Shown piece by piece: positions 4,708 to 64,000 of a stretch of 64,000 nt of DNA (position 1 is its first letter; every line of letters begins with the position of its first letter). Source of the DNA: Tubiluchus corallicola (lineage: Eukaryota; Animalia; Priapulida); NCBI GenBank assembly GCA_030141605.1, contig JAQGDQ010000978.1, positions 1 through 64,000 on the forward strand, read 5' to 3'. Below the pieces are notes generated by a model. The model saw only the letters and a program-made list of their open reading frames with translations. It was not told the DNA's origin and made no database searches. The translations under genes were made by a program, and so were the position numbers.

Positions 4708-5265
<558 letters not shown>

Positions 5266-10251: not shown

Positions 10252-10324
10252 GTAAATCTAAATTTGTAAATAGTCGTCAGCATCTAGACCTGTATTTTTC
10301 TGTACTTTTACTCATATTTTTATG

Positions 10325-10436: not shown

Positions 10437-10519
10437 GTTAAAAATCAATCAATTTCACTTTGTTCATAGGGTCCCTATATGCGAGGTAATTTAACTGGGT
10501 TTCTGTTATGCAGGACCTG

Positions 10520-10664
10520 AAGATATCGTCTCTTATAACCGAAAGTCCCTTATATCCGAGTACCTTATATACGAAGATTTTACATAGGAAAAACGTTACG
10601 AAAAGTCGGGACCGGTGTTGGTGGTCCGTTATAACCGAGTACATTATACCCGAGGTTGACTGTA
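10520..10664. mobile_element. Tc1/mariner-pogo-type MITE right end (partial)
   Basis: Ends CGAGGTTGACTG-TA, with internal TTATAACCGA/TTATATCCGA subrepeats. No matching left end found. Confidence 0.5.
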
Positions 10665-10836
10665 CAAAATATAGCTAAAAAAAGAAAAAAGTGATGTGCT
10701 TTTCAGTTGTTTTATTTTGTCAATACCAAACAAACAATTATATCATCAATATAATTAGCTTAGGGCCCGTAAAAACAATAAAAAATCAGTGCCATAATTA
10801 GCTAATGTTGATCTAACTTAAATCGTCTATTTCTAG

Positions 10837-11049
10837 ACTCCAATTGCAAGTTGCCGTGTCAGAATGGTGGATTCTGCAACGACTTTGATTTAGTTCAAAT
10901 TTGCGTTTGTCCGCTCAACTACGGAGGAATTCTTTGCGAGATCAACAAAGATGTCGGTTATGGCGTCGAATCTGCCGTGGGTCCTTTGAGACTGGTTGCA
11001 GAAGCAGCGACAGGAGGAGGGAGGCGAAGAGGAAGAGGGCGCAGAAGAG
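10837..11049 (+). CDS. Secreted EGF-domain protein, EGF exon + Arg/Gly-rich tail
   Basis: TTTCTAG acceptor at 10836, phase 1. DSNCKLPCQNGGFCNDFDLVQICVCPLNYGGILCE is a canonical EGF, followed by ...GGGRRRGRGRRR. Either stops at TAA 11054 or splices at GAG|GTTAAC. Confidence 0.85.
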
Positions 11050-11629
11050 GTTAACCCAAAAGAAGTTAATAGCCTTACTCATACAGGAATTTATTTATTA
11101 TTGTTGTTTGTATTTTTTATTTTAGTTACCCATTGGGTAAACAGGCAGCAAAAAACTTTCACATTTTTTGCAGGCAATAATGGTTCCAATTGTCGTCATC
11201 ATTGTCATCGTCGTCATCTTCATACACCACCACATTGACATTATTGGTATTTGGTATCGAAACTCCACTAACATCCGTGTAATCAACAATCAACGTGAAC
11301 TGCGTCACCATTGCTTGTGCTGCTGTAATTACTGATTAATCACAAAAATCGTCATCTCCGCAATCGTTGCTATTGCTACCACCTCCGTCATCATCGCCAT
11401 CATCTCCGTCATCGAAATGTCATCATTGTCATCACCATCATTCATGCAGTGTGTATTAACTCTAATCAAGGCTTGATCATGATTGCTAATATGCAAGTAT
11501 AACTGAGAATCAACACATTAAGAATCAATACAGTTTTCAACATACAAGTGGCCTTAAAGACTTGAGAAACGTTTGCTTGCAATGTTCTGCAGTGCAATTT
11601 TGATGTTATTTTAATACATTTGGCATCTT

Positions 11630-11901
11630 CAGGGCCTATTTCAGGGGGGGGAGTGGGGATACTTCCCCGGGGCCTCGCGCCGAGGTAACATTTTTTTTTG
11701 CTTTATGCGAACATTCATTTGCTCTTTCCTTTAACAACTGTATAACACCATATTTTCTCTTCGAAAATGCTTCTACGGCGTTCAAAAACTTTCTAGGCGC
11801 CAACCATGGTGGCGACGCCACCCCCCCCCCCCCCCACCGAGCACCGAGGGGCCTCACACGCCCCACTTCCCCGGGCCTCGCTTAGGCTGAAATAGGCCCT
11901 G
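11630..11901. mobile_element. hAT-like MITE with 15-bp TIR and 8-bp TSD
   Basis: CAGGGCCTATTTCAG ... CTGAAATAGGCCCTG, flanked by GGCATCTT on both sides (11622-11629, 11902-11909). Confidence 0.9.
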
Positions 11902-12148
11902 GGCATCTTATTTTATTAATGATTATTTAAAAAAAAACAGGGAAACTGTGCAAAATGGTCTACTGGTATTGTCTGTACGAAACGCATAGTTACAATTATT
12001 AATGCGTCAAGACGTGACGATGTGATTTGTGAATTTTTCTATAACTTGTAAATACACACTAACTGTATAATTGCAGTGTATTTATGTGAGTGTTTAAATT
12101 ATTGTGGTAAATTACTATTGTGAGAAGTGTTGGTTTTATATCTTACAG

Positions 12149-12168
12149 GTTATGGAATGAGCATTTAA
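12149..12168 (+). CDS. Probable short terminal exon of the EGF gene (GYGMSI*)
   Basis: TATCTTACAG acceptor, phase-1 compatible with a donor at 11049. TAA at 12166-12168; AATAAA at 12247. Confidence 0.5.
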
Positions 12169-12550
12169 GCTCTGCTGTTAAGCCTGCTGATTTAACTGGT
12201 GCAAACGAAATGACTGATGAGTGTGCAATAATATTTTCTTACATTTAATAAACTATTGCAAACTATTTTTATAAAACTTCCAATATTTATTTGATGGGAA
12301 AATGTATGACTTTACATTACAATTTTTTTTAATTATGAACTAATTTCTAAAATATTCTAATTAAAATTTAAAACTTTTTAAAAAAACATTAAAAAATTTA
12401 AAAAAATCATTACAAAAAGGACAATCTAAACAAACTTGTTTTAAGATGATGTTTAAAAGAATCCAATGAATTTGTAGAACTCATAGCAACAGGTAAATTA
12501 TTCCAGAGATGCACAGACAGAAAAATACTCTCTTTAGAATACCGTATTAT

Positions 12551-13010
12551 CAGGTGCGTGCATATTGCGGCCCGCAGAGAGAATTTGTCAACCTAATGAA
12601 AGTGCGGCCCGGGCGGTTAATTGAGTGTATCCAGCTGAAGTCCGTGCCACGATCCCAAAGATAGTGCGGGTAGTTTTTTCTACTAGATCGGATGCCATTA
12701 ACCCTTACAAGATGGTTGAAGCTTAATGTCACTGTACTACACAGACTGTGTGATACACATTACTAATATGCATTGTAATGAAATTACCACTATCTGTCCT
12801 GAAAGTAGAAATATATGGTTTGTAATATAAATTTTAATAACTTCTAAAATAGTTTCTTGAGTGTAGTAGTAATGATGTACGCAGGTCGGATGCAAAAAAT
12901 CGTTATTAGGCCTTTCTGTACTTGGCTCCTTGATCAAACTGCCTGTGGCCCACAGGAATTATGGGAAAGTTTAATGTGGCCGTGCTAGTCAGATAATTTG
13001 CACACCCCTG
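12551..13010. mobile_element. hAT-like MITE flanked by a 9-bp direct repeat
   Basis: CAGGTGCGTGCA ... TGCACACCCCTG with GCGGCCC/GTGGCCC subterminal motifs. CCGTATTAT on both sides. Confidence 0.8.
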
Positions 13011-13578
13011 CCGTATTATACTGTATTTTCACCGTAGAATACTGTATTAGAAATTGGCAGACTTAAATTACAACTTTATTGTAAATGCTTTACAATTTTA
13101 TAAAAAATTAGCAGAAGTTTAGTTTCAATTTGTCCAACAATATCGTCATTAAAAATCGATATACAAGAGCAGGGCCAGAAGTTCCCCAGCGAGGTCCATC
13201 CGGACAACAATACATTTTGCTGCATTTCATACCACTTTTCTGCCTCCTAGAAACTATTTCCTGAAGGAAGCTCACTGGTTTAGAACAGGTGACTCCTCAC
13301 CTTTTTACAGCATACATGATGGATGCACATAAATTGTGTTATATTATTATGACATATATAAGGTACTTTTAGGATCTGGTAAATTGTTCTAACGCTTATA
13401 ATTCAGAGAAAATATTAATTTGGTGTGTTGTATCAGTTACTGTGAACGGGAGGGCCCACCCCCTAACCCGCCACTGTACCAGAGGATTGTTACTAAAAAG
13501 CTTATTCTGCGTATTTGAACGTTTCTTTTTCTTAATATGGAATATTAACTCAAATATAACAATTGTCTGCACACCGCC

Positions 13579-13983
13579 TTAAGGGCTTAAGTGAAACTGT
13601 TTTTTCACACTATGAATTAGTCATGTTTAAAACAATCAATCCAAATTATCTAACGGCGTTTTTACAACCAAAGCGTTATTTTTAGATAAGACAAATTTAG
13701 ACTAGTCTACGGACTAGGGCAAACAGAGCGTCGCGCCCAAAACAGACAAAAAGCAAATATACTCTTCCTGCGTGAAGATGGAGCCACTGTGATAGTGCTA
13801 CAAGCACAACCTGTAGAGGTGAATGTGTATTAATGTAAGTGTTCGAGTTCCTGAACTCAAACTCGGGAATAAAAACGTATTGATGCAAAACATGATGAAA
13901 TGTACATTATGGGAAGATACGTAGACACTATTATAGGCATCTCATTGAAAAAACAAATTCCAGAATTATGTTAAGTCCTTTAA
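13579..13983. mobile_element. TTAA-flanked Kolobok-like MITE (family B)
   Basis: TTAAGGGCTTAA ... TTAAGTCCTTTAA. The interior is homologous to ~37240-37655 (shared CACTATGAATTAG, GAAGATGGAGCCAC, ATTGATGCAAAA). Confidence 0.55.
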
Positions 13984-15845
13984 GGATTTAATCCCCATTG
14001 TTACTCGTTTTGAACTGGTTTCATCTGTTTAAATTTATAATTTAAGACGAAAATAAATTAATCACGCGAAATAAACAAAGTTTATTATTCTCGGAAGTTT
14101 TATTATAACTTTATTGCAACTGCTTTAAGAAATTACTAGAAGTTTAATTTGAATTTATCTAGTAGTAACTCATTCAAAATCAGTATACCGGCGAATTCCC
14201 ACTAAAAACATTGTGTTGATGAACGGTGCTTTTTATTAATAATACCGAATACCTGCTCAGACTTAACGTTTAATTGCATACGAATTAATACTTTTTCAAT
14301 CGAGGTAAAGAGCTTAAAGGTACGATTAATTCTACCTAAAAGAAAGTGCCAAAATTCAATTATTACCGATTCGTTTATTCAAACAAAAAAATACAAACCT
14401 TGATGTAAATTAAAAATGTCACTTTCATGAACTAGCTTTTGACTACAACGAAAATACGTAAACGTATTATAAAATAAAATAAAGGTATTAAGAAACAAAA
14501 GAAAATATAAAAATTATTAAAACTTAATACACAGCACAATTAAAACCTAAGCATGTAAAATGCTAATCATATTAAACTAACGAATGAGGCAAAACGGGCA
14601 AATAGGTTACTATTGAAATGTATCAAAGACAATGATGAAAAACAAAGTATTTACTAGCAAGTAAACAATGCTGAACAAGCAACCAAAAATGGAGAATGAA
14701 AATAATTGTTCCTTTATTTCGCACATAACTTACAAGCATGTAAACAATGGAAAATGAAAATATTATTTTATTTCACACACATGATACTTTACTTCACACT
14801 AACGGAAAATGAAAATGTTATTTTATGTCACACATGATACAAGCAAAAAAACAATGGAAAATGAAAATATATGTTACTTCATTTCGCACATTTAATATTT
14901 TATAAGCAGTTAAACAATAGATAATGAACATATATATTAAACATGGTGGGAAACGGAACGACATTACGGTTTCTTAACCTAAATAAAGTAAAATATCTAA
15001 TTTTAATCAGCGATTGTACTCTACTTATGAAGCTATTTTACAGTAACAATTGCAGTTTTTTCTTAAATATTTATTTTTAAACATAAGAATTATTCAGAAT
15101 CTATTTTAAATTTGTTGAATTGAACCTGGGATTTAAACTACAGGACATTTTATATGAAATTGTCCCAATTTCACTTCCTTAATTACATTGGCATCATTTA
15201 ATGCAACAGTTATAATTAAAGACGTTTTTTACATTATTTCATGACAGGCCGACAGTTGATGAAAACGATAAAACTTCTGACAAACAGTGAAAGAACAGTG
15301 GCTATATTATACGTAGGTCAATTGGACAGGGCAACTAAAAAATGATGCACTTCACTGTTAGATCCAATGAACGGGTGAGCTTAAAAATGTTACACATGAT
15401 TGGACAGGGTGGTCTAAAAAATGCTAGAGCAGTTCATTTTACATTATACCAGCTGGACAGGCCAAATTGAAGTATTTCAAGTAAACCAAAGCGAAAATCT
15501 AAACAATCAGAATCTAACATTGCAAATGCTGAATTTGGATGGCTTGGTATAAAAGGATGAATTTTTTATGGACTGCCTTAGACTACTGGGAGATGATGCA
15601 GTGGCCAGCTAGTGGCATAAGGCATCCGCAATGTAACCAAAATGTGCCTGGTTCACATCCAGCATGCGTTTTACTTTTTCACGTTTCCTGTATCTCGAGT
15701 TCGCAACATCGTTAGAAATATGCCAAGACACTAAAACATTCCAATTTAATCTAGCAAAACTTGCAAACTGATTCGATGATATGATTTCTGAAACAGTTTT
15801 GAGGATCTTACAATTGCTATTTATAACAATATAAGTTAATTTTGT

Positions 15846-16376
15846 TACATTATCGATTAATATTACAATAGAGTACTTTGATGAATAATCACTTTAGATA
15901 ATACTACATTATTGATTAATATTACAATACGAGTACTTTGCTGAATAATCACTTTAGATAGTACTACATTATCGATTAATATTACAATACGAGTACTTTG
16001 ATGAATAATCACTTCAGATAGTACTACATTATAGATTAATATTACAATACGAGTACTTTGATGAATAATCACTTTAGATAGTACTACATTATTGATTAAT
16101 ATTACAATAGAGTACTTTGATGAATAATCACTTTAGATAATACTACATTATTGATTAATATTACAATACGAGTACTTCGATGAATAATCACTTTAGATAG
16201 TACTACATTATCGATTAATATTACAATAAGAGTACTTCGATGAATAATCACTTTAGATAGTACTACATTATCGATTAATATTACAATACGAGTACTTCGA
16301 TGAATAATCACTTTAGATAGTACTACATTATCGATTAATATTACAATATCAGTACTTCGATGAATAATCACTTTAG
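15846..16376. repeat. 59-60-bp minisatellite, ~9 copies
   Basis: Unit ATTACAATACGAGTACTTTGATGAATAATCACTTTAGATAGTACTACATTATCGATTAAT. Confidence 0.95.
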
Positions 16377-17121
16377 TTAACTAAGTACCAGTCCCGCTAC
16401 AACTGTCTGCACTACTTCCAGGCCCTGTCGCGAGTATTGGCTTGCACAAGTGCTCTCTCTTTCTCAAATCTCAAATTCAAGTTTTCTACAAGGGCCTCCT
16501 CAAGCTTCGACTGAGCGTTACAAGCAACACGATGTTACTCTACTACTCGAGGAGTCTGATCACAGGTCGTGAAAAGGGGAGACCAATGGAGACAGACTGG
16601 CCAAACATGAGACAAGACAGATTAACCCTCCTGAGGCTACAAGAGCACCAGACATGAGCTCTGCATTAGAGCCATGCTCCAGCTGAATAAAGACAGAAGC
16701 ATCACCATCCAAAGGTAAGACCCAGATGTATTCAATGATGGAGAAACATTTGCAAAAACTTATTTAAAGAATTTAAAGACATTATATAGATGTGTAATGC
16801 ATAGATATCAGATGTAGCAGAGACACTCTTGCATCAATTACTATCAATGAGACAAACCAAATTTCAGTATATATAATGAAATCAAAGTTTCTGATAAAAT
16901 ACGCGCTAAAACCAACTATACAACCTGTTCATGAGTTTAAAGTGGGCATTTCATTATGATAAAATTTGAATTGTAAAATTCAATTTAGTGTCTGAAACAT
17001 AAGTGACAGAGACAACCGAAACCGAAAACTATTACAAAATTACTAAATTTGTCAACCTTACACTAAGAACAAGATTGGTGTAGGAAATGTTTGCCACGCC
17101 AGTTTCACTTGCTCGACTTGC

Positions 17122-17315
17122 CTGTCAAAGTTTGTATTTTTTCCTAAATTTTTACTTACCGGTTTGCTAACTCTTTGGTATCCGTAATGAAGCAAAAAGG
17201 GTGTTTTTATTGCTATGCTGTCAAAGTTTGTATTTTTTCCTAAATTTCTACTTAGGCTTTTGCTAACTTTTTGGTATCCGTAATGAAGCAGAAAGGTTGT
17301 TTTTATTGCCATGCT
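17122..17315. repeat. Tandem duplication, 2 x ~96 bp
   Basis: CTGTCAAAGTTTGTATTTTTTCCTAAATTT...GGTATCCGTAATGAAGCA occurs twice. Confidence 0.85.
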
Positions 17316-19228
17316 CCCTGTTAATGCAGCGGATTAGTAGGATTATGCATAAGTACAATTTGTGAGTGTAGAACGCACAATGTTAGTTTAGAAGGAAAAC
17401 TAGTAGCAAGGTTAATTCAGCAGCTGTTAAAATATATGCTGTATTTACAGGAAGCATTTAAAAATAAAAACATCTACAGTATATGTTGGTGTCAAGCAAT
17501 TTAATTTAGCATTCTATAATTATTTGTTTTCTTTTCGCATTTTTACAAACATGCATTACCTGAAAATGTTTAAAACGAAGCCAGCCTTAGTCATGTGACC
17601 TAAGCTTTAGTAGTACACGCCACCTATCAATCACACTTGTTCTTACACGTAGTTAGATTTTCTGTTGCCGCTATGCTGACCATGCCGTTTGGTGATACTT
17701 GCATTGCTTTGACTATTTTGTTGCAATTGAACAGTCACTAGTTGTATTTTCAAGCCAAAGTTGTCGCCAGTACATGCAAGTCACCATCTACTTTAATAAT
17801 TAGCTAATAGTTTAAATTGGTTAGAATTGCTTCAAATCTCTAGAATCATAAAGTAATAATTTGTGTTTCAGTCTTCTTAAATCTAATTTTTTATTTTGTC
17901 TGAATAGTAATAACCTTTACACGTTCTTAAGTACTTTTTGTGATCTGTTATTTTAATAAATTGCAGGTCTATCGTGCAGTTCAATACTGATTTTTGCCGT
18001 TTCTTTGCCTGGACTGGGCGCATCCACAGTATATATATAAAAATTAAAATTATCAAAATATTACAATATTTAACTAGGTTTTATATATATTAGGGTTTAT
18101 ATATCAATGTGGTGAGAAAAAAGTTTAGGGGGAAAATTTGCAAAAATACAGCTGTAGATGACCACTTGTGGAATTTAACACGAGGTCGTTGAGGAATATG
18201 TTTAGTATTTTTGGTAATGAATTACCTACTAATGTAAAAAAAACCCCTATGCATAACACATGTGCGTCATTTCTGACTAGAAAGATTTCTTCTACTAATA
18301 AACAGTCTCTTCACATTACAATTTACATTTTTATATAACCTTTCTCCCCTTTAAATATCAAGATAAAACCATCAATCATCTTAGATAGTGTATCAAAAAT
18401 ATTCTGCACTCTTAGGTTCCAACTACAAATATTGTTTCTAGCCTTTTTCAAGGAAAAACCACTTGCAAATGTGAGTGAATGTCTACACCAGCGTTCAGTA
18501 ATATCACATCTGTTCTAGAAGTGGCCAGGTCTACTATTCTGTCTCTTAAAAAATCATTATCCCCTACCTCAAATATCACCAACCTATTAACTGTGCGTTT
18601 GAAACATTTGAAAAGTTAGAAATTTCTCTTCACTGTCAGCAGTGATGAGTGTGTTCTCAACAGCGTTTGTCTTACCAGTTACTAGCTCATTTTTGCATCG
18701 AATCTTTTAGCTTGTTATGCAACTCAAAGTTTCTCATTATACACACCAATGGATAACTGCTGCTGCCACCTGCCAGATACTAACTGTAACATATAAATTT
18801 TCTTCTGTAAAAGAACGACATTTAGTTTATCATTAATTTTTTATCATTTTGATAAATGTACGGCAGAATTACACAGACGATTGAACCACGTGGTTTACAT
18901 GCACACACACCAATGGATAACTGCTGCTGCCACCTGCCACACAAATGAGAACTGAAACTATAAATAATGAGCAAGTCAGTATTTTCTAGTTGCAAATGTT
19001 GTGTTCAATGGTAACCTATTACAAACAAATACTAAACACACTGCTATTAAGATTTGCTATTTAAAAAAACATGTAATGTATTATGTAATAAATTTCAAAA
19101 GCCGCTATTAAGTAAATTTTGCGTCACAATGAACAAAAATTATGCATTATGTAACAAACTAATACAGGGCCTGTCCTTCGCCATTACTTTGTTACATAAT
19201 GCATCATGCGGTGCTTTCATTACATAAT

Positions 19229-32386: not shown

Positions 32387-32824
32387 TAGATAGATAGATT
32401 GATAGTTTATTTCTGAAAATCAAATTTCCAACACGAAAATTACTAACTCGACGCATACCCGATGGTTTTATCAGCGGGCAGAGCTCGGGTAATGATTTCC
32501 AGATCATACTAACAATTTGACTCAACATAGCTGCACGAGGTATATACACAGATATACAAATTTAGTTGTAAACTCTATGAAGCGAAAAAAAACTATTAAC
32601 TAAGCATTTGTGCACATGTGATAAACAAATATTTTACCTATATGATAATCACAGTGATGCGGTTATATGTCCGCTAACAAAGCTATACTATTTAATTCAA
32701 AAATCTATGCATACAGTCGTAAATGAAATTTCCAATCGACATTAATTCTCCGTCAAATAAATTTGCAATATTACTATAATTTAACGCGTACGGTGATCTA
32801 TAAAGTGCATTTTCTTGGCACTCG
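32387..32824 (-). mobile_element. Non-LTR retroelement 3' end, copy 2
   Basis: Reverse complement of ~4708-5140, with a short TAGA tail. Confidence 0.65.
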
Positions 32825-45122: not shown

Positions 45123-45283
45123 TCACTCACATCCGAACTCTTTTAGGCTTAAGTCCTTGACGAGACGTCCTTTTTGTGCAGAAGGTTTGGAACATGTTCC
45201 TCTGAGATTCATGAATGGGGAGACTGGATCCCACCAGACTTCTCTTATCCAACGCATCGGACAGCTACAATCCAGTGGATTAC
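45123..45283 (-). CDS. Secreted LRR protein, exon 2 (LRRCT cap)
   Basis: TTTTTGATAG acceptor, phase 1. Translates (G)NPLDCSCPMRWIREVWWDPVSPFMNLRGTCSKPSAQKGRLVKDLSLKEFGCE*, a canonical NPxxCxC...C..P...C LRRCT. Minus-strand AATAAA near 44945. Confidence 0.88.
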
Positions 45284-45677
45284 CTATCAAAAAGCATCCA
45301 TTTAGCTCTCATTTTAGGCAAATATAACTTCGGTCCATGCAGAGTAATATCTGGCATATTATATGGTATTAAAATTCAACATTTTGATCAAAATTCAACA
45401 AAACCTACAGCCTTACTAAATGAGAATCATTGCATGATAAAAGACAAAAAACAATTATACCATTGTAATGGTGGTATTTTCCGCGTGAGAGTAAGCCTCT
45501 TGTACTTGTAAATTTGTGCATCAGCACTGGATGTCTTTTGAAGCATTTAGACTTACGTACAAACGTTCAAAACATGCTTACAATTTCAATGGGGTGTACA
45601 ACAGCATTTTTACAAGAAAATCAATCAAAATAAATCTGAAAGTTAAGCTGCTAAATACATTGTAACAAGTATCTAAC

Positions 45678-46296
45678 CTTGTAGATAAAATGTCCCCGTT
45701 TTTTCCAGTGCTTTTGGATGCTGACTCAACTTGAATGTAGACAAGTTGTCTCCTACCATATAGATGGTCGTCAGCAGCGGCTGCTTTTCCAGGTTCAGAT
45801 CGCGCAGCTTCAGTTTCTGATTCCAGCTGAGATTCAGTGTCTTCAGTTTTCTCAGGTTAGTAAACGACTTGCGATGAATCTTTGTCAGTTCTGGGTTCAT
45901 GACAATCGAGACAGCCTGAACGTCCTTCACCGTACCGAAGACTTGTTTCTGCAGGATGGTCAGCCGCTCGTTGTTCATGACCAAGACGTTGGAGACATTT
46001 TTAGACGAAAGGAAACCTCTCGGCAACTCTCTTCCTTTATATTTACGTATCCATAACTCGTAGATTGGTTTGTCCATCTTGGACATAGACGTCTTTAACT
46101 CGTCTGCAGTTAGTTGTTCGCAGATGACTTCTGTACAAGTCGTGGCGAGGTGGCTCTTCATCCAGCAGGAACAAAAGCCAACGTCTTCGGGACATGTCTG
46201 ATATCCGGGACATTGGACCTGTATATTGCCAGCTTGGCAACAAAAGAAACAGAAACAAATAGACACAAATAAAAGAATGAAACTCGATTCGTCCAT
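45678..46296 (-). CDS. Secreted LRR protein, exon 1 (signal peptide, Cys-rich LRRNT, LRRs)
   Basis: Hydrophobic N-terminus, TCPEDVGFCSC...VIC cap, LRR motifs (FTNLRKLKTLNLSWNQKL; LTTIYMVGDNL). Phase-1 donor CAAG|GTTAGA. The spliced product is 259 aa. Confidence 0.9.
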
Positions 46297-55880: not shown

Positions 55881-56743
55881 AAGTTACAAAAAAGGTTTCC
55901 TCTTTTACCTGTGTTGACCTTCCATTTGCCTATAATTATCAAACAATCTGAACGAACGAAAAACGATCGAACGGTCGGTGTGCAAAACCGCTAGACATTG
56001 TAAGCATTCTTATATTATTACTATCGCGAATATCTATTTTACTCCTACAAGTACATATATATATATATATATATATATAATCTTTATTTGCCATTAAAAT
56101 ACATTGATAATCACTGATAAAACTTTACACAGATGATCAATCAGTGTTAGTTAATAAAAACTCACACTGTTAAAGGCAAATGCGTCAGTGCAATCTAAAC
56201 TACTGTGCAGTAATGGAAAGTAACGACGAATAAAATCAAACATATTTACAGCTATGCACAAAAAAATGAAAAGTTAACTTGTGAAAACGTTTCGTGACAG
56301 TCTTTATAGCTTGTCAATTGCCAAATGTGAATTTTACGTTAAAAGCTTAAATAAATTTTCAAATACGTTTTTAATTAAAAATTCAACGCAGAAAATATAA
56401 ATGTTTTTCCTATCCATGCAATGACAGCGTTGATGGCATCTCGGTTTTGCTCCTGCCACGCCCACACGCCCTCAAATGAATCCGTACGATTGTCATGCTT
56501 CTAGCCGGACACGTTTTATTGACTGCATTACTGTAGCGTCGGCCTGGCTTCCCAAGCTGACGAAAAGGTTAAAAAAGCAGCTAACAAACAGTGGGCGGTA
56601 CTGCACCACCCACTAAACGTAATTGAAACACAAGTGCCCTGACGCATGCGCGTTGAGCATGGTGATCCATTCTGATTGTGGGGATGTGCATCGCTAAATT
56701 TTTCAAATTATCTTAGGCCCCTTACATTATATAGATGTAAACA

Positions 56744-56890
56744 GCAGACGGTTTAATCTAGTGGTAACGCGTCTGCTTTCCGTCTGAGAGGTCGTGAGTT
56801 CGAATCAGCTACAGGGTCATACCAAAGACTTTAAAAATGGTACCTGCAGTTGTCCTGCTTGGGGCGTGGTATTTAGGGTAAAAGTGGGGT
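56744..56890 (+). mobile_element. tRNA-derived SINE with a conserved-looking central domain
   Basis: A-box-like CTAGTGG and B-box GTTCGAATC (56798-56806), then GGGTCATACCAAAGACTTTAAAAATGGTACC...CCTGCTTGG. Confidence 0.65.
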
Positions 56891-56974
56891 AATAATAGTC
56901 TCTGTTATGTAGTTGTAGATTGTTGTTTACAGTCGGACCGAAAACTGTTTGGAGCTTATGTTAATTGTTTATCC

Positions 56975-57351
56975 TAGATAGATAGATATTTTATTTCTGA
57001 AAATCAAATTTCCAACACGAAAATTACAAACTCGACTCATACCCGATGGTTTTATCAGCGGGCACAGCTCGGGTAATGATTTCCAGATCATACTAACAAT
57101 TTGACTCAACATAGCTGCACAAGGTATATACACAGATATACAAATTTAGTTGTAAACTCCATGAAGCGAAAAAAACTATTTACTAAGCATTTGTACACAT
57201 GTGATAAACAAATATTTTACCTATATGATAATCACAGTGATGCGGTTATACGTCCGCTAACAAAGCTATACTATTTAATTCAAAAATCTATGCATACAGT
57301 CGTAAATGAAATTTCCAATTGACATTAATTCTCCGTCAAATAAATTTGCAA
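56975..57351 (-). mobile_element. Non-LTR retroelement 3' end, copy 3 (more 5'-truncated)
   Basis: Reverse complement of ~4762-5135, with a TAGA tail. Confidence 0.65.
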
Positions 57352-58092
57352 GTAAAATGAAAAAGTAGAATATATATTGTTATCTACTTTGATAAACTAG
57401 ATGCATACATTTGTGAGACGTTAAGTCTTCACAGCCAGAATTGCCCCACATTGCATGGCTTCACCAATATCTAAGTATGATTGTAGGAAAGAACGAATTC
57501 TATATCCATTTTGGCTTATTGGACAAGTATAACCAGAAACCGTAACTCGAATTACATTCAGACATACTACTAGTACTAGAGAGAAGACATTTATTTTTAC
57601 GAATGAGCTGTTTCCGATCTAGCATTTGTAAATATTTTAATTATAATCAATTATAAATAATTAATTAGATTTTTTAGGTACAGTGCATGTTTTTAATTTT
57701 TCTTTGTTATATTCTTTTGTGATTTAGATATTAAAACAGTAAAGAACGGCGAATACAGTCATCAGAATGATTGCAAACCAATGACTCTCTTTGATTTGAA
57801 AATGCCCTTATTGTTTTAACAACACACAATTGGCAAAAATGAGTATGAAACAGAGCGGAATATACATGAAAATTGCAAATAGTTCATAGAATTCACGTAT
57901 GTGTATCAATTGTTTGTTTGTTTGTCTGTCTGTTTAATCGTTTTGCACTTTTCACTACTTTCACAACCTTTAATCGTTTTGCACATTTCACTACATGTGC
58001 ACAGAGTTGCACAACTTTTTGTTTTAATATTTTCTATGTAAGTAAATAAAATCAAGATCTATTTTAAATCTTACATTTTTTAAAAATTAATT

Positions 58093-58121
58093 TTGAAATA
58101 ATAGCTTATAGGAATTATAAT
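58093..58121 (+). promoter_or_regulatory. Bacterial sigma70-type promoter
   Basis: TTGAAA (58093-58098) - 17 bp - TATAAT (58116-58121), upstream of the ABC operon. Confidence 0.8.
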
Positions 58122-58128
58122 GTATTAT

Positions 58129-58159
58129 AGCATATGTGCAAACGTTTGCTCAATATGCT
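58129..58159. promoter_or_regulatory. LacI/GalR-family operator
   Basis: Perfect core palindrome GCAAACGTTTGC (58138-58149) within AGCATATGTGCAAAC|GTTTGCTCAATATGCT, just downstream of the -10 box. Confidence 0.75.
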
Positions 58160-58197
58160 TTATTTTTTTTGGAGTTTACTTTAAGGAGGAAGAAAGT

Positions 58198-59577
58198 ATG
58201 AGTTTAGCTAAAAAATTATTACTACTAAGTAGTATTTCACTGTTTTTATTTGCATGTGGGGGAGGCGCATCTCAAGAAACAACAGAGGGCAATGAATCCA
58301 AATCTATTGAAGTGACTGATGATGTTAACGAAAATAAAAATAATGACAAAATGCCTGAAAAATCTAAAGAAAAACAAAATGTTAGCATTTGGGTTAACTC
58401 AGGAAAACCTGAAGAAGTGGCAGCATTTGATGAGTTGTTTGAAAACTTTAACTCTTCCCAAAATGAAATTAATCTGGAGGTTACGAGATTTCCTGATGGA
58501 TCATACAATGAACAAGTAAACGGAGCTATACTTTCTGGAGACCTTCCAGATGTAATGTTAATTGATGGACCAAATGCTTATAATTATGCATGGTCTGGTG
58601 CTCTTATTTCTATAAGTGACTATATTACTGATGAAATAAAAGGTGATTTGTTACCATCAATAATTGATCAGGGCATGTATAATGGAAAAATGTATGTTGT
58701 GGGTACTTTTGATTCAGGATTAGCACTTTGGGGAAATAAATCATATTTAGAAAAAGCTGAAGTTAGAATACCTACATCAATTGCTGATGCTTGGACTTTA
58801 GATGAATTTAATGAAGCTCTAGAAAAATTAAAAGAATTAGAAGAAGTAGAGTACCCTTTAGACCTTAAAATGAACTATGGTGCTGGAGAGTGGTTTACAT
58901 ATGGATTTTCACCTATTATTCAAGGATTTGGAGGAGACCTTATTAATAGAGAAAGCTTTGATTCTAGTGAAGGTAAAATAAATGGAGTAGAGGCTGTTGA
59001 AGCTATGAATTGGTTTCAGGAATTATTTAACAAAGAGTATGCATTAAAATCACCAGCAGGTGATGATGATTTTTATGGTAAAAAAACTGCTGCGCTTTCT
59101 TGGGTTGGTCATTGGATGAAAACTCCGCACATAGAAAATTTAGGTGAAGACTTAGTACTTATTCCTATGCCTAAATTTAATGATAAAGTTGTAACAGGCA
59201 TGGGGTCTTGGGCTTTTGGGATAACATCTAAATCAAAAAATCCAGAACTATCATGGAAAGTTATAGAATATTTATTAGAGCCTGAAAATATAGAGGCCTT
59301 TACAACAGCAAATGGAGCTATTCCTTCAAGAAAGTCTGTATTAGCAAAGTTACCAGAGTATCAAAAAGGTGGATTATTGTATGTTTTTAGAGAGCAATTA
59401 GAAAGTGGTAGTGCAATTGCAAGACCGCAAACAGCTGCCTACCCTGTTATTACAAGTACATTTTCTGACTCTATCCAAAATATTATGAACGGTGCTGATG
59501 TAAAAAAAGAGCTAAATAAAGCATCTAAAATAATAGACCAAGATATTGCTGATAACGGAGGTTATATCCTACAATAA
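58198..59577 (+). CDS. Carbohydrate ABC transporter substrate-binding lipoprotein (CUT1 family), 459 aa
   Basis: RBS AAGGAGGA 7 nt before ATG 58198 (the ORF-track start at 58120 is too early). Lipobox LFA-C; motifs SGDLPDV, LWGNKSYLEKA, GMGSWAFGI typical of sugar-binding proteins. Confidence 0.93.
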   Translation: MSLAKKLLLLSSISLFLFACGGGASQETTEGNESKSIEVTDDVNENKNNDKMPEKSKEKQNVSIWVNSGKPEEVAAFDELFENFNSSQNEINLEVTRFPDGSYNEQVNGAILSGDLPDVMLIDGPNAYNYAWSGALISISDYITDEIKGDLLPSIIDQGMYNGKMYVVGTFDSGLALWGNKSYLEKAEVRIPTSIADAWTLDEFNEALEKLKELEEVEYPLDLKMNYGAGEWFTYGFSPIIQGFGGDLINRESFDSSEGKINGVEAVEAMNWFQELFNKEYALKSPAGDDDFYGKKTAALSWVGHWMKTPHIENLGEDLVLIPMPKFNDKVVTGMGSWAFGITSKSKNPELSWKVIEYLLEPENIEAFTTANGAIPSRKSVLAKLPEYQKGGLLYVFREQLESGSAIARPQTAAYPVITSTFSDSIQNIMNGADVKKELNKASKIIDQDIADNGGYILQ

Positions 59578-59605
59578 ATAAATTAGTACTTTAATTACAA
59601 AATAG

Positions 59606-59654
59606 AATCGATTTCTCATATATTAATTTATATTTATGTGAGAAATCGATTTTA
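59606..59654 (+). terminator. Intercistronic stem-loop after the binding-protein gene
   Basis: AATCGATTTCTCATATA ... TATGTGAGAAATCGATT-TT. A second AT-rich hairpin lies at ~59669-59709. Confidence 0.65.
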
Positions 59655-59757
59655 TTAAATCTGCTAAAGAATTTATATAAAACTGCTAAATAATTATTTT
59701 ATATAAATTTTGGGATTATCTTCATCTATATAATTATGTGCATATGGAGGAAACTTT

Positions 59758-60663
59758 ATGAAAAAAACTAAAAATACAATTAGTGAAAATACCACTGGAT
59801 GGATTATGGCTTCCCCTGCTCTTATTCTTCTAAGTATGTTTTTATTGATACCTTTTATTTTAGCTATTTATTTATCTTTTACTAACCAAAGACTTATTAC
59901 CAACCCAAACTTACCAACTAAATTTATAGGATTTGAAAACTATAAGCGTATTTTTAGTTCTTCAGATTTTTTAAAATCAATACTAAATAACTTTATATTT
60001 GCTTTTTTTGTTGTGCCAATCCAAACGTCTTTAGCTTTAGCTATGGCAATGTTAATAAATAAAAAGGTGAAATTTGTAAACTTTTTTAGAACTTTGTATT
60101 TTAGCCCAGTTGTGATTACTATGGTTGTTGTTTCTGTTGTTTGGAATTTACTTTATAATCCGAGTGCAGGTACTATTAATAAGATATTAGAAGTTATTTC
60201 ATTTGGCCAAATTGGACCTCAGGACTGGCTTGGAGATCCTAAACTAGCATTACCAGCAATAATGATTTTATCTATATGGCAAGGTGCAGGATTTCAAATG
60301 ATTTTATTTTTAGCAGGACTTCAAGATATCCCTAGTGAGCTTTATGAAGCTGCAAAAATGGATGGTGCTAATAAAGTACAGTCATTTTTTAATGTGACCA
60401 TACCAATGCTTAGAAATACTATTATGTTTGTTGTGGTTTCAACCACTATACTTTCTTTTAAATTATTTACTCAAGTTTGGGTTTTAACACAAGGAGGGCC
60501 TCAAAATGCTACAATAACTAGTGTGGTTCTTATGTACAAAGAAGGTTTTCAAAAGCTAAAAGTTGGATATTCATCAGCCCTTGCAGTACTTTTCTTCTTA
60601 ATTGTTGTATGTATTTCTATGATACAGAGATTTGTTCTAAAAAATGATAAGGAGGATATATAA
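59758..60663 (+). CDS. Carbohydrate ABC transporter permease (MalF/UgpA-type), 301 aa
   Basis: GGAGG RBS, multiple transmembrane segments, FIGFENY, EAA loop ELYEAAKMDGA. Confidence 0.95.
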   Translation: MKKTKNTISENTTGWIMASPALILLSMFLLIPFILAIYLSFTNQRLITNPNLPTKFIGFENYKRIFSSSDFLKSILNNFIFAFFVVPIQTSLALAMAMLINKKVKFVNFFRTLYFSPVVITMVVVSVVWNLLYNPSAGTINKILEVISFGQIGPQDWLGDPKLALPAIMILSIWQGAGFQMILFLAGLQDIPSELYEAAKMDGANKVQSFFNVTIPMLRNTIMFVVVSTTILSFKLFTQVWVLTQGGPQNATITSVVLMYKEGFQKLKVGYSSALAVLFFLIVVCISMIQRFVLKNDKEDI

Positions 60664-60666
60664 ATA

Positions 60667-61524
60667 ATGAAAGATACTAGAAAACCAGGAGTAAAGTTTT
60701 TTGACTTTATAAGCAATTATTTTTTACTTATAATACTTGCAATATTTTTTATATTTCCTACTATTTTTATGTTAATCTCATCTATTAAAATTGATGAAGG
60801 ACAAATAATTAAAGATATGAGTAGTATAAAAGGTTTTATACCTTATGGAAAATTAGGGTTTGGCAACTATAAGGATGTTATTACTCAGATGAATTTTTTA
60901 AGATTTTTTTTCAATTCTGTTTTTATAGTTGGGTGCACTGTTGGTTTAGGGCTTGTAGTTAATAGCATGATAGCTTATGCACTAGCTAGGCTAAACTTTG
61001 TAGGAAAAAAATTAATTCTGTCTATTATAATAGCTCTTATAATTATTCCTATAGAAGCAATAGTTATCCCTTTACTTTTAATGGTTAATAAATTTGGATG
61101 GATTAATAGTTATCATGTGCAAATAATACCTTTTATTGCTCAACCATTGTATATATTTTTATTTTACCAATTTTTTATAGGTCTACCAAAGAGTCTTGAT
61201 GAAGCTGCTCTAATAGATGGAGCTAGCTTTTTCAAAATATTTTGGACTATTACCCTACCTCTTTCTAAACCTGTTTTAGCTTCTGTAGCAATACTTTCTT
61301 CAATTGAAAGGTGGGGAGATTTCTTGTGGCCTTTAATGGTTACAAGAGGAGAAAATTTTAGACCTTTGCCAGTTGCCATGCAAAACTTTTTTGGACAAGA
61401 CCCAAAACTATGGGGAGATATATTTGCTTTTGCCTCAATGATTACAATACCTCTTTTAATTGTTTTCCTTATATTCCAGAAGCAATTTGTAGAGTCAGTT
61501 GCATCTAGTGGCATTAAGGGTTAA
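60667..61524 (+). CDS. Carbohydrate ABC transporter permease (MalG/UgpE-type), 285 aa
   Basis: AAGGAGG RBS inside the end of the previous gene, AYALARL, EAA loop LDEAALIDGAS, WGDFLWP, C-terminal SSGIKG. Confidence 0.95.
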   Translation: MKDTRKPGVKFFDFISNYFLLIILAIFFIFPTIFMLISSIKIDEGQIIKDMSSIKGFIPYGKLGFGNYKDVITQMNFLRFFFNSVFIVGCTVGLGLVVNSMIAYALARLNFVGKKLILSIIIALIIIPIEAIVIPLLLMVNKFGWINSYHVQIIPFIAQPLYIFLFYQFFIGLPKSLDEAALIDGASFFKIFWTITLPLSKPVLASVAILSSIERWGDFLWPLMVTRGENFRPLPVAMQNFFGQDPKLWGDIFAFASMITIPLLIVFLIFQKQFVESVASSGIKG

Positions 61525-61549
61525 ACTTTTAATGCATGCTATCTAAATG

Positions 61550-61588
61550 AAAAGGCAAGATATAAGGTTTTTATATTTTGTCTTTTTT
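61550..61588 (+). terminator. Rho-independent terminator
   Basis: AAAAGGCAAGATATAA-loop-TTATATTTTGTCTTTT followed by a T-run. Confidence 0.75.
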
Positions 61589-61677
61589 AAGAAAAAATTT
61601 TTATTTATAAACAAAGGCGATGAAAATTGATATAAATTAGAGAATATTATTAAAATAAAAAAATTATGGAGGAACTT

Positions 61678-63171
61678 ATGCGAGATAATAAAAAAAATAT
61701 TTCAATACCATTAGAATATGATCCTAAAACTAACAATGTATTTATGGGAAAACTTGTAGATCATTTGAAATATGCAAATACAATACATTATAAAGCTGAA
61801 AAATATTGGAAAAAGGATAATGAAAAATATATAGAAGAAACGAAAAAAGGTATTTGTACATCACAGTGGGGTCATAGCTGGAATGGCTACTTTCCTTGGA
61901 AATCCTTTGCATATCCTAATATGGATACTACATATTGGTTTTATTCTTTAGATTGTAGCAATGAAGAAAATATCTCAGTTTTACCAATTATTAGGTTAAG
62001 AGGAAAATTTCCACATTGTAGATATTATAGTTATAATCTATACGATAACTCTACTGGATTTGCTTATGGAGACGGAATACTAGATAAAGACATAAAGCCT
62101 GACAAAGGGAGCTTTAATCCGTTTAAGTCAGGAGTAGATAGAAGTGTAGAAAAACGAGATTTTACTTTATGGCTTATATCTGAAAGCTTAAAAGATTCAG
62201 ATGTTTTTAAGGAATTAATGAAAGAGTATGGAAAAGCTAATATTATAATTATTCCAAATAATATCTCTAAACCAGCAGTTGCACTTAGAGTATACTTGCC
62301 AGATAGTGGATATAAAATACATGGGCAAAAAAATGATGATATTGCCTTACCCATTATAGAATCGTTTGACTCTAGTTGTAAAACTCTTGAAGAAGTAATT
62401 TCTACTCCAACTTCTTGTCCACCTGCTTATAATACTAATGTTAAATTTTTCCTATCATTAGCTGGTAATAATAAAGATGTGGAAAGGGTAGACCCTGAAA
62501 AAGATATTTTCAAAGAAATATCTTTTTTACGAGCTCCTGGTGGTGGTCAGTGGCCCACGGTTCATAATATCTATGCAGGCACACCTATAAGGCCTTATAC
62601 AATTTCAGAATCTGCAAAAGGGTATGGGGAAATTATTGAATTACAATTTAAAGTACCTAGCACCCCAAAAACTTTATCTGGAAAAGAAAAATTTAACCAT
62701 AATTTTCATGATATGAGATACTGGTCTATTTCAATGAATAACTTTGATTCTACAATTGGAATGCGAGCATATAATGATGAAACTGTAGCAACTTATAAAG
62801 ATGAAAAAGGTAATTTGTGGGTACATATGATAATTGCGCCGAATACTTCTGAAATAAAAGATTTTATTAAGGAAAATATGAAAAATATAACTTTTCTACC
62901 ATATGATGGTGCTCAAATTGGTGCTAAAATAACGAAAAAAACAATAAGACGAATACCTACAATAATACATAGAAATTTATTAATTAATAGCAATTTTAAA
63001 TATGGGTATAATTCTGTTAGAGAAAGATTAGAAAAAATACATGGAGAAAGAGTAAAAAAGTATTTTGCTGATAAATATATAGGTAGCTATGCTCCAACTG
63101 GAAAATATTATACAAAAGAGGAATTTTTTAAAAAATATAGCAAAATAAATTCTAATGAGAAGTCCATATAA
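61678..63171 (+). CDS. Hypothetical bacterial protein, 497 aa
   Basis: Long ORF with GGAGG 5 nt before ATG 61678, bacterial AT-rich codon usage, and motif-like segments (GKFPHCRYYSYNLYD, DIKPDKGSFNPF, LRVYLPD, RYWSISM). Confidence 0.88.
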   Translation: MRDNKKNISIPLEYDPKTNNVFMGKLVDHLKYANTIHYKAEKYWKKDNEKYIEETKKGICTSQWGHSWNGYFPWKSFAYPNMDTTYWFYSLDCSNEENISVLPIIRLRGKFPHCRYYSYNLYDNSTGFAYGDGILDKDIKPDKGSFNPFKSGVDRSVEKRDFTLWLISESLKDSDVFKELMKEYGKANIIIIPNNISKPAVALRVYLPDSGYKIHGQKNDDIALPIIESFDSSCKTLEEVISTPTSCPPAYNTNVKFFLSLAGNNKDVERVDPEKDIFKEISFLRAPGGGQWPTVHNIYAGTPIRPYTISESAKGYGEIIELQFKVPSTPKTLSGKEKFNHNFHDMRYWSISMNNFDSTIGMRAYNDETVATYKDEKGNLWVHMIIAPNTSEIKDFIKENMKNITFLPYDGAQIGAKITKKTIRRIPTIIHRNLLINSNFKYGYNSVRERLEKIHGERVKKYFADKYIGSYAPTGKYYTKEEFFKKYSKINSNEKSI

Positions 63172-63208
63172 AACATATTATGTAAATTAATATTAAAATA
63201 AAAACTAG

Positions 63209-63237
63209 TTGAAAAAAAATAAAATAAATAATATAAT
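63209..63237 (+). promoter_or_regulatory. Bacterial sigma70-type promoter
   Basis: TTGAAA (63209-63214) - 17 bp - TATAAT (63232-63237). Confidence 0.7.
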
Positions 63238-63294
63238 CTATGAAATAATGTTTTTATACTAATTTGAAAACTTACAATTTATTTAGGAGGAGAA

Positions 63295-63822
63295 ATGAAG
63301 AAAATATTTTTAGTTATAATTTTATTTTTATTTTTTATTACAGGTTGTACAACTTTAGAGGAGGTAAAAAATGATGTAACAACTAAAGTTACAAGTGTAG
63401 AAATTGATGAACTAGATAAAAATGAAAATGACATATATTACTATAAAGAAAAACTGTATACAGGAGAGGCAGTATCTTACTATGATAATGGAAATTATAA
63501 AATTAAATTGAATATAAAAGATGGAATAATTGATGGTCAGGTAACAGCGTTTTATGAGAACGGGCAAATAAAAACTCAACTTCAAATGGAAGGCACAAAA
63601 ATAAAGGGAAAAGTTGTAAAATATTATGATAGCGGTGAACTTCTATCTATAGAGAACTATAAGGATGAAAAGTTAGATGGAGAAAAAATAGAATTTTATA
63701 AAAATGGGAATGTAAAATTTAAAGGGACATTTAAAGACGGCATACTAGTAAGCGAAGGTATATTTTATGGAGAAAATGGAGAAATACTAGAAATTATAGA
63801 ACCTGGAGATAGTATTAACTAG
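63295..63822 (+). CDS. Lipoprotein with MORN-variant (MORN_2 / YwqK-like) repeats, 175 aa
   Basis: AGGAGG RBS, lipobox ITG-C, repeated G-x4-[YF]Y-x-[NS]G...[YF]KDG units (YYDNGNYK, FYENGQIK, YYDSGELL, FYKNGNVK, FYGENGE). Confidence 0.9.
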   Translation: MKKIFLVIILFLFFITGCTTLEEVKNDVTTKVTSVEIDELDKNENDIYYYKEKLYTGEAVSYYDNGNYKIKLNIKDGIIDGQVTAFYENGQIKTQLQMEGTKIKGKVVKYYDSGELLSIENYKDEKLDGEKIEFYKNGNVKFKGTFKDGILVSEGIFYGENGEILEIIEPGDSIN

Positions 63823-63834
63823 AGAACTAATCAT

Positions 63835-63871
63835 AAAAAAGCTTCTTAAATATAATTTGAGAAGCTTTTTT
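63835..63871 (+). terminator. Rho-independent (probably bidirectional) terminator
   Basis: AAAAAAGCTTCTTAAAT ... ATTTGAGAAGCTTTTTT. Confidence 0.85.
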
Positions 63872-64000
63872 ATTAAATACCTAAAGCCATTTTTTTTAAA
63901 AGAAATTTTTTCACTTATTATGTAAAAAAGTAAATATGTATAAATCTAAAATATAAAGCAATAGTAAACTTTATAGTTATAGCAAGATATTTAAACTTGA

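Follow-up and report, generated by a model that had tools for sequence, protein, structure and literature searches.

Bacterial genes adjoin animal DNA near position 58,020 of the window (the whole 64-kb stretch of DNA that was analysed), and we put the probability that this is a chimeric assembly join with a co-sequenced bacterium at about three in four. Two kinds of DNA, their N-free adjacency, a host repeat at the border, and bacterial sequence in the sequencing runs of the sample are directly seen. The bacterial genes are ordinary: two accessory genes accompany a predicted importer for sugars of the fructose or sucrose type. A sequence-only reading of this DNA had ranked a chimera with a symbiont or gut bacterium above a recent lateral insertion. 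The undecayed state of the genes, their presence in the runs of the sample, and the sugar-using, non-intracellular look of the donor support this order, with a chimera as the likeliest cause and a recent insertion second.

Animal DNA left of the join

The DNA left of about 58,020 is animal, with an intron-split LRR gene, a tRNA-derived SINE, and satellites. The features on this side and at the border are as follows.

45,126-46,296, minus strand: host LRR gene (exon from the ATG at 46,296 to 45,678, GT..AG intron 45,677-45,284, LRRCT exon)
56,745-56,936, plus strand: tRNA-derived SINE, thousands of copies
56,975-57,351, no strand: dispersed host repeat, with 97%-identical copies at 4,764-5,139 and 32,391-32,768 (self-BLAST)
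57,352-57,910, no strand: single-copy polymorphic host DNA (run depth)
57,911-57,932, plus strand: GTTT/GTCT microsatellite (sequence)
57,933-58,020, plus strand: host repeat in many copies (one 36-nt unit, another that bears a 12-nt insert, then five T)
57,980-58,092, no strand: animal-bacterium join interval, no N and no gap, best guess near 58,020

The LRR gene carries LRR_8 (E 3.5e-10) and LRRCT (E 0.0012) domains of Pfam, and its nearest Atlas clusters are eukaryotic. The LRR exon joins the LRRCT exon in frame across the intron, a splice that is predicted from the sequence. An EGF exon with AG/GT ends lies at 6,103-6,294, and 53 tandem-repeat rows were found in 1-58,020. These features agree with the spliceosomal introns, SINE, and microsatellites previously described up to about 58,020, and the GTTT/GTCT microsatellite lies exactly where it had been placed. 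Long microsatellites and a 3-kb satellite are resolved in the window. No tRNA gene was found in the 64 kb.

Of the sequencing runs X1 to X5, X1 to X4 were used for depth; X1 and X2 are from one sample, and X3 is from another sample and another study. The summed depth of the SINE reaches 692,916 in X1, against 74-159 for single-copy DNA. Its head resembles the bivalve Meta/MD SINEs and the sea urchin SINE2-1_SP (supplement rows). The dispersed repeat has a high depth in X1-X3. In the single-copy segment, X1 has records at depth 74-119 and an alternative allele at depth 89; an X2 record at 57,408-57,962 (depth 4.8) differs by 6 substitutions and 2 gaps.

Bacterial genes and signals right of the join

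Five densely packed intron-less ORFs with Shine-Dalgarno sites had been claimed here. Five long plus-strand ORFs were indeed found at 58,120-63,822, and GGAGG precedes all five starts, a count that assumes starts at 58,198 for ORF1 and 61,678 for ORF4. Coding density is 92% over 58,198-63,822, with intergenic DNA making up 8% of the bacterial stretch.

58,093-58,121, plus strand: putative sigma70-type promoter-like site 1 (TTGAAA-17-TATAAT, 11/12 match, directly before a gene)
58,135-58,153, no strand: palindrome (sequence), in a region that folds at z -2.95
58,198-59,577, plus strand: sugar ABC solute-binding lipoprotein (ORF1), 459 aa, intact, SBP_bac_1 E 2e-27
59,601-59,652, plus strand: intergenic 20-pair hairpin, z -8.7 (folding)
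59,758-60,663, plus strand: ABC permease 1 (UgpA/MalF-like), 301 aa, intact, BPD_transp_1
60,667-61,524, plus strand: ABC permease 2 (UgpE/MalG-like), 285 aa, intact, BPD_transp_1
61,549-61,587, plus strand: terminator-like hairpin after the ABC operon, z -5.0 (folding)
61,678-63,171, plus strand: VPA0735-like protein (ORF4), 497 aa, bacterial family without a name, no Pfam match
63,209-63,237, plus strand: putative sigma70-type promoter-like site 2 (TTGAAA-17-TATAAT, 11/12 match, directly before a gene)
63,295-63,822, plus strand: MORN_2 repeat lipoprotein, 175 aa, intact, MORN_2 E 2.7e-16
63,833-63,873, plus strand: terminator-like hairpin, z -8.2, with bacterial-type intergenic DNA onward to the window end

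Both of the promoter-like sites previously noted are present and gene-adjacent; the overall number of such sites is at chance (38 found, 38.4 expected), so that it is their position alone that carries weight. The hairpin terminators also noted correspond to the three strong hairpins listed above, and none of 200 shuffles was as stable in any of the three. The terminator scan, with 4 matches against 2.1 expected, missed the intergenic hairpins. Rfam gave no match at E<=0.1 on 58,110-64,000. The palindrome at 58,135-58,153, whose motif we take to be of the LacI type, may be an operator; LacI-type genes flank the relatives in 4 of 8 loci.

ORF1 matches SBP_bac_1/8 of Pfam. It is 58% identical over 450 aa to P0012, and its best identity is 64% among the best 120 of 2,408 matches. 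Among the best 80 loci of 481, the best identities are 61% for permease 1, which is below all NCBIfam cut-offs, and 67% over 258 aa for permease 2. ORF4 has 503 relatives at E<=0.001, the best of which (42%) is named as from an Oleispira MAG. Its fold is predicted to resemble VPA0735 and Burkholderia 6ANS (model pLDDT 84.7; Foldseek E 5e-12 to 6ANS and 4e-8 to 2P3Y). Relatives of the MORN_2 lipoprotein reach at most 38% in one search and 40% in another.

Like the CUT1 importers MalEFG and UgpBAE, the cluster is a single operon for a binding lipoprotein and two permeases, and a hairpin follows the gene of the binding protein; both BPD_transp_1 permeases carry EAA motifs. Unlike these importers, the operon is below every NCBIfam cut-off. 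No MalK-type ATPase is present in the window's cluster, and one is adjacent in 2 of the 8 related loci examined; a MalK-type ATPase may be shared from elsewhere in the genome. The neighbours of the relatives include GH32 in 4 of 8 loci and GT4 or sucrose-synthase-like genes in 4 of 8, and these neighbours point to fructose- or sucrose-type sugars.

Relatives of the donor bacterium

The searches found no close relative of the bacterium; the best protein identities are 40-67%. The taxonomic comparison of the five proteins that had been proposed returned bacterial relatives without a close one, and its hint of Fusobacteriota is weak: the best plasmid match of the MORN protein is Ilyobacter, and 4 of 10 matches are Fusobacteriota. 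No exact match to the five proteins (7 start variants) was present in the protein collection (0/7). None of 99 pattern matches of the binding protein in metagenome contigs was confirmed, and the MORN protein was found in 0 of 5 genomes behind the low-GC loci. Against plasmids, the operon DNA matched 2 records over 94 nt each. Code 11 is used, with 29 TGG and no in-frame TGA; at a GC3 of 17-20% in the bacterial genes, these counts reject a code-4 (Mycoplasma-type) donor. No Wolbachia, Rickettsia, or other Rickettsiales was among the best 80 loci of 481. Judged from its genes, the donor resembles a sugar-using, non-intracellular type more than an intracellular symbiont of the germline.

Position of the join and the border repeat

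The switch had been described as N-free and AT-rich on both sides. The 64-kb window contains no N, and GC is 31% in the last host kilobase against 23-31% on the right. The 29 host bins have a CpG o/e of 0.47-1.28, and the three 2-kb bins on the right have 0.30, 0.12, and 0.49. The Markov composition score is bacterial from bin 58,001-58,050 onward; it is noisy (the AT-rich host bin 57,651-57,700 also scores bacterial) and places the switch near 58,000-58,050. The join most likely lies near 58,020, after the multi-copy host repeat, within a resolution limit of about 57,980-58,092, the lower bound being set by depth arithmetic and the upper by the -35 box. Bin 58,014-58,060 is uncovered in all four runs compared, and the filter drops records, so this is evidence for neither reading. 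Among the contigs listed, no run contig crosses the join; the cover hole proves nothing.

The border repeat is about 90 nt long and contains two 26-nt copies 36 apart. The 12-nt insert of its second unit makes a short palindrome at 57,996-58,013. Its depth is about 11-22 times that of single-copy DNA in three runs, one of them from another study, and its copy number is roughly 10-35. Depth in bin 57,948-58,013 is 1,539 in X1, 52 in X2, 43 in X3, and 0 in X4. Self-BLAST of the window found no other complete copy. A CRISPR array was considered and rejected, as there are no spacers.

A true join at the microsatellite (57,932), already crossed by contigs of two runs, with a bacterial repeat at 57,933-58,020, is very improbable. 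X1 record 8 and X2 record 16 do begin in unique host DNA and enter the repeat, by 24 and 30 letters respectively, but these lengths are below the 31-letter bridge threshold. The palindrome of the repeat and the operator-like site at 58,135 agree in 14 of 19 positions, and a Cys-rich minus-strand frame (50 codons) is open from 58,055 to 57,909 across the join; lacking a clear start and an SD site, this frame is not counted as a gene. Against a bacterial origin, the X3 depth of 43 in a run with only 0.10 of the words argues that the repeat is not bacterial single-copy DNA, and its depth ratios to the SINE stay within 2.5-fold across three runs. Its GC is 36%, whereas four of five bacterial intergenic stretches have 14-20% and the fifth 29%. 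The repeat unit has no exact match in viral and metagenome contigs.

The order of its parts resembles the 3' end of a HINE, a lead drawn from the sequence. HINEs are used here as defined in the consulted parts of PMC4067079 and PMC7492417. Like the HINE, DINE-1, and pearl non-autonomous Helentrons described there, the repeat is multi-copy and has a microsatellite (GTCY-like), central tandem units, a 3' palindrome, and a T-run in that order. HINEs have sub-terminal inverted repeats of 11-15 bp and insert at TT; here, 57,868-57,879 matches the repeat units in 10-11 of 12 positions by eye, which is about chance in AT-rich DNA. The border repeat is only about 90-150 nt long, and the likeness is one of the order of parts.

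Mis-joining through repeats is a well-known error of assemblers. Another copy of the border repeat could abut truly integrated bacterial DNA elsewhere, with the assembler having crossed between loci through the repeat. The join directly after a repeat of roughly 10-35 copies would fit. At about 90 nt, however, the repeat is far below long-read overlaps, and a rare real insertion would still be required; we consider this course of events highly unlikely.

Bacterial sequence in the runs

The words of 56,000-64,000 (n=857) are present at 0.91 in X1, 0.34 in X2, 0.10 in X3, 0.06 in X4, and 0.05 in X5; no RNA run was among those listed. On the bacterial side, X1 has at least 88% of the words and X2 about 19-23% or more; the foreign DNA therefore exists in the sequenced sample. 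Single-copy host DNA is covered to 51% in X2, 15% in X3, and not at all in X4. The X3 share of 0.10 requires no bacterial DNA, since host DNA could supply up to 0.118, at a single-copy host cover of only 15%. X3 and X4 were compared on the host side only, and their cover of single-copy host DNA is too thin to judge absence of the insert. The longest X1 record has 195,318 bases, against 6,714-17,621 in the other three runs and 60-607 for the listed host pieces, which hints weakly that the X1 library contains a replicon poor in repeats and free of polymorphism.

Presence in the runs favours a chimera, with the reservation that X1 and X2 are possibly the source of the assembly and thus not independent support. 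However, a recent one-haplotype insertion also predicts intact genes, presence in X1 and X2, and long contigs. The X2 share of bacterial words is also of the same order as its single-copy host cover, and dosage at the host level would produce this too.

Absence of decay

The claim that stops, frameshifts, and TE insertions are absent held: 0 stops or frameshifts occur in 5,151 coding bases. Under a neutral model with an assumed indel:substitution ratio of 0.1, the probability of no disabling change is 0.54 at 0.1% divergence, 0.046 at 0.5%, and 0.002 at 1%. Any real insertion must therefore be younger than about 0.5% divergence. The decay, duplication, and host TEs expected of a nuwt-like insert, unless very recent, were not found. 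This intactness favours a chimera; the host DNA just left of the join, by comparison, has allelic differences.

The second reading, an unlikely one, is that 6 kb or more of bacterial chromosomal DNA was really inserted, very recently, probably in one haplotype and through end-joining repair at or beside the host repeat. An N-free join in an apparent long-read assembly (microsatellites and the 3-kb satellite resolved) and its place at the end of a HINE-like repeat speak for it. A random break is usually less tidy than this join, which falls between bacterial genes and close to what may be the natural 3' terminus of the host repeat. Against insertion stand the narrow age limit, a donor without sign of germline intracellular symbiosis, and no return to host DNA up to the window end at 64,000. 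The known integrants named in the consulted part of PMC10898089 derive from endosymbionts, Wolbachia among them.

Discussion

Further grounds favour a chimera. The type of donor does, with its full regulatory signals, sugar ABC importer, and non-Rickettsiales look. So does the rate of chimeric HiFi reads, as reads with supplementary alignments, taken as chimeric, reach up to 0.81% (PMC11809032, as far as consulted). The absence of a close reference also counts: according to the FCS-GX authors, in the part consulted, chimeras go under-reported unless both sides align well, and contig ends are a frequent place for them (PMC10898089). As in the TRIM/FIX inter-kingdom chimeras treated there, eukaryotic and prokaryotic spans lie in one sequence, and a contaminant without a reference is harder to flag. 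Unlike the N-free join here, the simulated chimeras of that source were built with a 10-N spacer.

A chimeric read or mis-join would have attached a low-GC bacterial chromosome to the animal contig at a short host repeat. The join would then be carried by no cell, the bacterium would live in or on the animal, in its gut or on its surface, and the join would have passed cleaning because the bacterium is without a close database relative.

Weighing against a chimera and for insertion, TE-poor, near-whole bacterial chromosomes really occur in animal genomes. Nuclear insertions from Rickettsiales include Wolbachia nuwts and a near-complete R. africae chromosome in the tick Amblyomma variegatum (the latter in the consulted part of bioRxiv 10.64898/2026.09.16.751987), where, as here, a long bacterial stretch with few or no TEs adjoins repeat-rich animal DNA. 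The tick insertion is documented by spanning long reads and by FISH; it shows duplication and the disruption of some genes, and its donor is intracellular. The present case is known from sequence, and its donor looks non-intracellular. A narrow literature search on mollusc cases found no related paper, which does not imply absence in print.

We give a small chance to the reading in which an undescribed, non-intracellular bacterium (perhaps a Fusobacteriota-like fermenter of the gut) has just donated 6 kb or more of DNA, undecayed and still segregating, that entered where a rolling-circle-type host repeat has its 3' end. If true, it would be a bacterium-to-animal transfer caught before decay, and its donor would belong to a class that is not known to insert into the germline. 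Such a rare snapshot of a fresh non-Rickettsiales transfer would open entry, silencing, and decay to direct study. If the join is an artefact, as we favour, a GC-matched, N-free chimera with a reference-less bacterium can pass screening, and five false 'horizontally acquired' genes would enter the annotation of the animal. The same runs would then probably contain a recoverable genome of an undescribed associate.

Bacterial genes right of the join

No N occurs in the window, and five long plus-strand ORFs lie between 58,120 and 63,822, in agreement with the sequence-only reading. The gene starts were set as follows.

58,198 (+), sugar ABC binding lipoprotein
59,758 (+), ABC permease 1
60,667 (+), ABC permease 2
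61,678 (+), ORF4
63,295 (+), MORN_2 lipoprotein

With these starts, the claimed Shine-Dalgarno sites were found as GGAGG upstream of 5/5 genes, and the coding share from 58,198 to 63,822 is 92%. Pfam families were assigned to the solute-binding protein, the two permeases, and the MORN_2 protein; ORF4 (61,678-63,171) matched no Pfam family. The proposed terminators correspond to three intergenic hairpins (folding z -8.7, -5.0, and -8.2). The two TTGAAA-17-TATAAT promoter-like sites are placed before the first and last genes, but the total of promoter-like sites equals chance (38 found vs 38.4 expected). GC is nearly alike on both sides, and a GC filter could miss the join; CpG o/e is lower on the bacterial side (0.12-0.49) than on the host side (0.47-1.28).

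Animal DNA left of the join

The domain scan covered the longest 150 of the 211 non-repetitive stop-free frames of at least 55 codons left of 57,900. Of these, just two, LRR_8 and one EGF exon, reached a curated cut-off; an LRRCT exon and a further EGF exon scored slightly below it, and the remaining weak matches left of 57,900 look like chance. The introns claimed earlier are borne out by a GT..AG intron (45,677-45,284, minus strand), across which the LRR and LRRCT exons are joined in frame; the EGF exon at 6,103-6,294 (plus strand) is bounded by AG/GT. Host-side splicing is predicted from sequence. The nearest Atlas clusters of the LRR protein are eukaryotic in 9/10 listed rows, and one row has no record. 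SINE remnants had also been claimed, and a SINE lies at 56,745-56,936; its head is similar to SINEs of bivalves and sea urchins given in the supplements to PMC4824008 and PMC4758252. The DNA left of the join is animal, and the host is accordingly an invertebrate.

The LRR gene (45,126-46,296, minus strand) is of secreted type, with a signal-like N-terminus, a cysteine cap, LRRs, and the LRRCT exon; animal LRR proteins form its nearest Atlas clusters. The two EGF-domain exons (plus strand, 6,103-6,294 and 10,838 onward) probably belong to a gene for a membrane protein, and a hydrophobic stretch follows the second. Between them lies a 57-bp satellite (6,421-9,429, 53 copies, 95% matches); both of its strands have stop-free frames, as long as 532 codons. 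A 377-nt dispersed repeat in three 97%-identical copies (56,975-57,351, 4,764-5,139, and 32,391-32,768) begins at a (TAGA)n/(CAGA)n microsatellite and is a recently active host element.

A host repeat at the join

The microsatellite reported before the switch is followed by two units and then five T. The first unit is 36 nt long; the second carries an insert of 12 nt, which makes up a short palindrome.

57,911-57,932, microsatellite
57,933-58,020, host repeat
58,016-58,020, terminal five T of the host repeat

Contigs from four sequencing runs (X1-X4) were compared over 56,100-58,060; X1 and X2 share one sample, which may be the source of the assembly. Single-copy host DNA has a depth of 74-159 in X1 and 4.8 in X2, and the bin 57,948-58,013 has 1,539 in X1, 52 in X2, 43 in X3, and 0 in X4. 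That the repeat is itself bacterial is highly improbable: X3, from a separate sample and study, reaches depth 43 here yet contains 0.10 of 857 short sequence words from 56,000-64,000, and the bacterium therefore cannot be in X3 at that depth. The repeat-to-SINE depth ratio also agrees within 2.5-fold across X1, X2, and X3. For these two reasons, the stretch after the microsatellite is a repeat of the host, present in some 10-35 copies. A genuine insertion at a different copy of it has a very slim chance.

By depth arithmetic, the shared part may end anywhere within ~57,980-58,013; by eye, unit periodicity extends to about 58,020. X1 and X2 contigs extend 24 and 30 letters, respectively, from unique host DNA into the repeat, short of the 31-letter bar. 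None of the listed contigs of X1-X4 over 56,100-58,060 enters the bacterial part, and such gaps carry no weight. As far as the excerpts of PMC4067079 and PMC7492417 describe it, the HINE, a non-autonomous Helentron-type element, has the same order of parts; however, the sub-terminal repeats here agree at only 10-11/12 positions. The 64-kb window has no second full copy.

The palindromes at 57,995-58,013 (repeat end) and 58,135-58,153 (operator-like, bacterial operon) share 14/19 letters, by chance or as microhomology relevant to formation of the join. A Cys-rich 50-codon frame (57,906-58,055, minus strand), containing repeats of 12 and 16 residues, stays open through the join and has no clear start.

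Chimeric join or insertion

X1 contains 0.91 of the words and X2 0.34; for bacterial-side words, the shares are at least 88% and about 19-23%. Bacterial DNA is present in the sequenced sample. The longest record has 195,318 bases in X1 vs 6,714-17,621 in the other three runs; this hints weakly at a separate replicon poor in repeats, although a large one-haplotype insertion would look alike. Host contigs in X1 are short, unlike this record.

With a probability of about 0.75, the join is artificial: DNA of a bacterium inhabiting the animal (in or on it) would have entered sequencing with the host DNA, and a chimeric molecule or mis-join at the low-complexity border would have fused the bacterial chromosome and the host contig. 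The sequence-only reading had ranked a chimeric join with a co-sequenced bacterium first, and this is supported, though unproven. In one test, at most 0.81% of HiFi reads gave chimeric alignments (excerpt of PMC11809032), and missing references lead to under-reporting of chimeras (excerpt of PMC10898089). Several points count against a chimera. The bacterial-word share in X2 is of the same order as the 51% cover of single-copy host DNA, and the join lies between bacterial genes, near a possible natural element end.

A fresh bacterial insertion via end-joining at the host repeat is unlikely, but it is the foremost alternative. Related literature includes the tardigrade case (10.1101/033464) and a paper reportedly on Wolbachia integrants in Drosophila ananassae (PMC4558871). 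Also against a chimera, bacterial chromosomes with few TEs can be genuine parts of animal genomes, as in a tick, for which there are spanning reads and FISH (bioRxiv 10.64898/2026.09.16.751987). The bacterial genes are without decay over 5,151 coding bases, as had been noticed; under an assumed indel rate, neutral divergence of 0.5% would leave a probability of 0.046 for this, and 1% a probability of 0.002. Host alleles differ near the join, with an alternative allele in X1 (depth 89) and 8 differences/557 nt in one X2 contig (depth under 5, where errors may contribute). Thus, an insertion, if real, would be of very recent origin and would probably still segregate.

An undescribed bacterium

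The five proteins, entered as 7 start variants, had no exact match (0/7) in a 15-billion collection. The top identity of the binding protein is 64% among 120 listed of 2,408 matches, and that of permease 1 is 61% among 80 loci retained of 481. These 80 loci span Chloroflexota, Thermotogota, Deinococcota, Bacillota, and others (GC 31-72%); the ABC cluster is therefore mobile and does not identify the donor. In eight of them, 31/84 neighbouring ORFs were scanned, revealing LacI-type regulators (4/8), DeoR (3/8), MalK (2/8), GH32 (4/8), and GT4 or sucrose-synthase-like enzymes (4/8). Because of these neighbours, the predicted substrate of the importer is likely a fructose- or sucrose-type sugar.

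ORF4 has 503 distant relatives, the top one 42% identical and labelled Oleispira. Its model (pLDDT 84.7) resembles the uncharacterised Burkholderia/Vibrio proteins 6ANS, VPA0735, and VPA0106; the Atlas assignment to DUF1214 is only a lead. The bacterial family to which ORF4 belongs has no name and comprises about 500 clusters at 50% identity; D136, N147, R204, R347, and S350 are invariant in 56 aligned sequences. Relatives of the MORN protein reach 38-40% identity at most; in a plasmid collection, 4/10 matches are Fusobacteriota, Ilyobacter being closest, a weak hint of a Fusobacteriota donor. A code 4 donor was excluded, since 29/29 Trp codons are TGG at a GC3 of 17-20%.

The right side comes from an undescribed bacterium. 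Most likely, the join is an assembly fault that at once reveals an undescribed bacterial associate, the genome of which may be recoverable from run X1.
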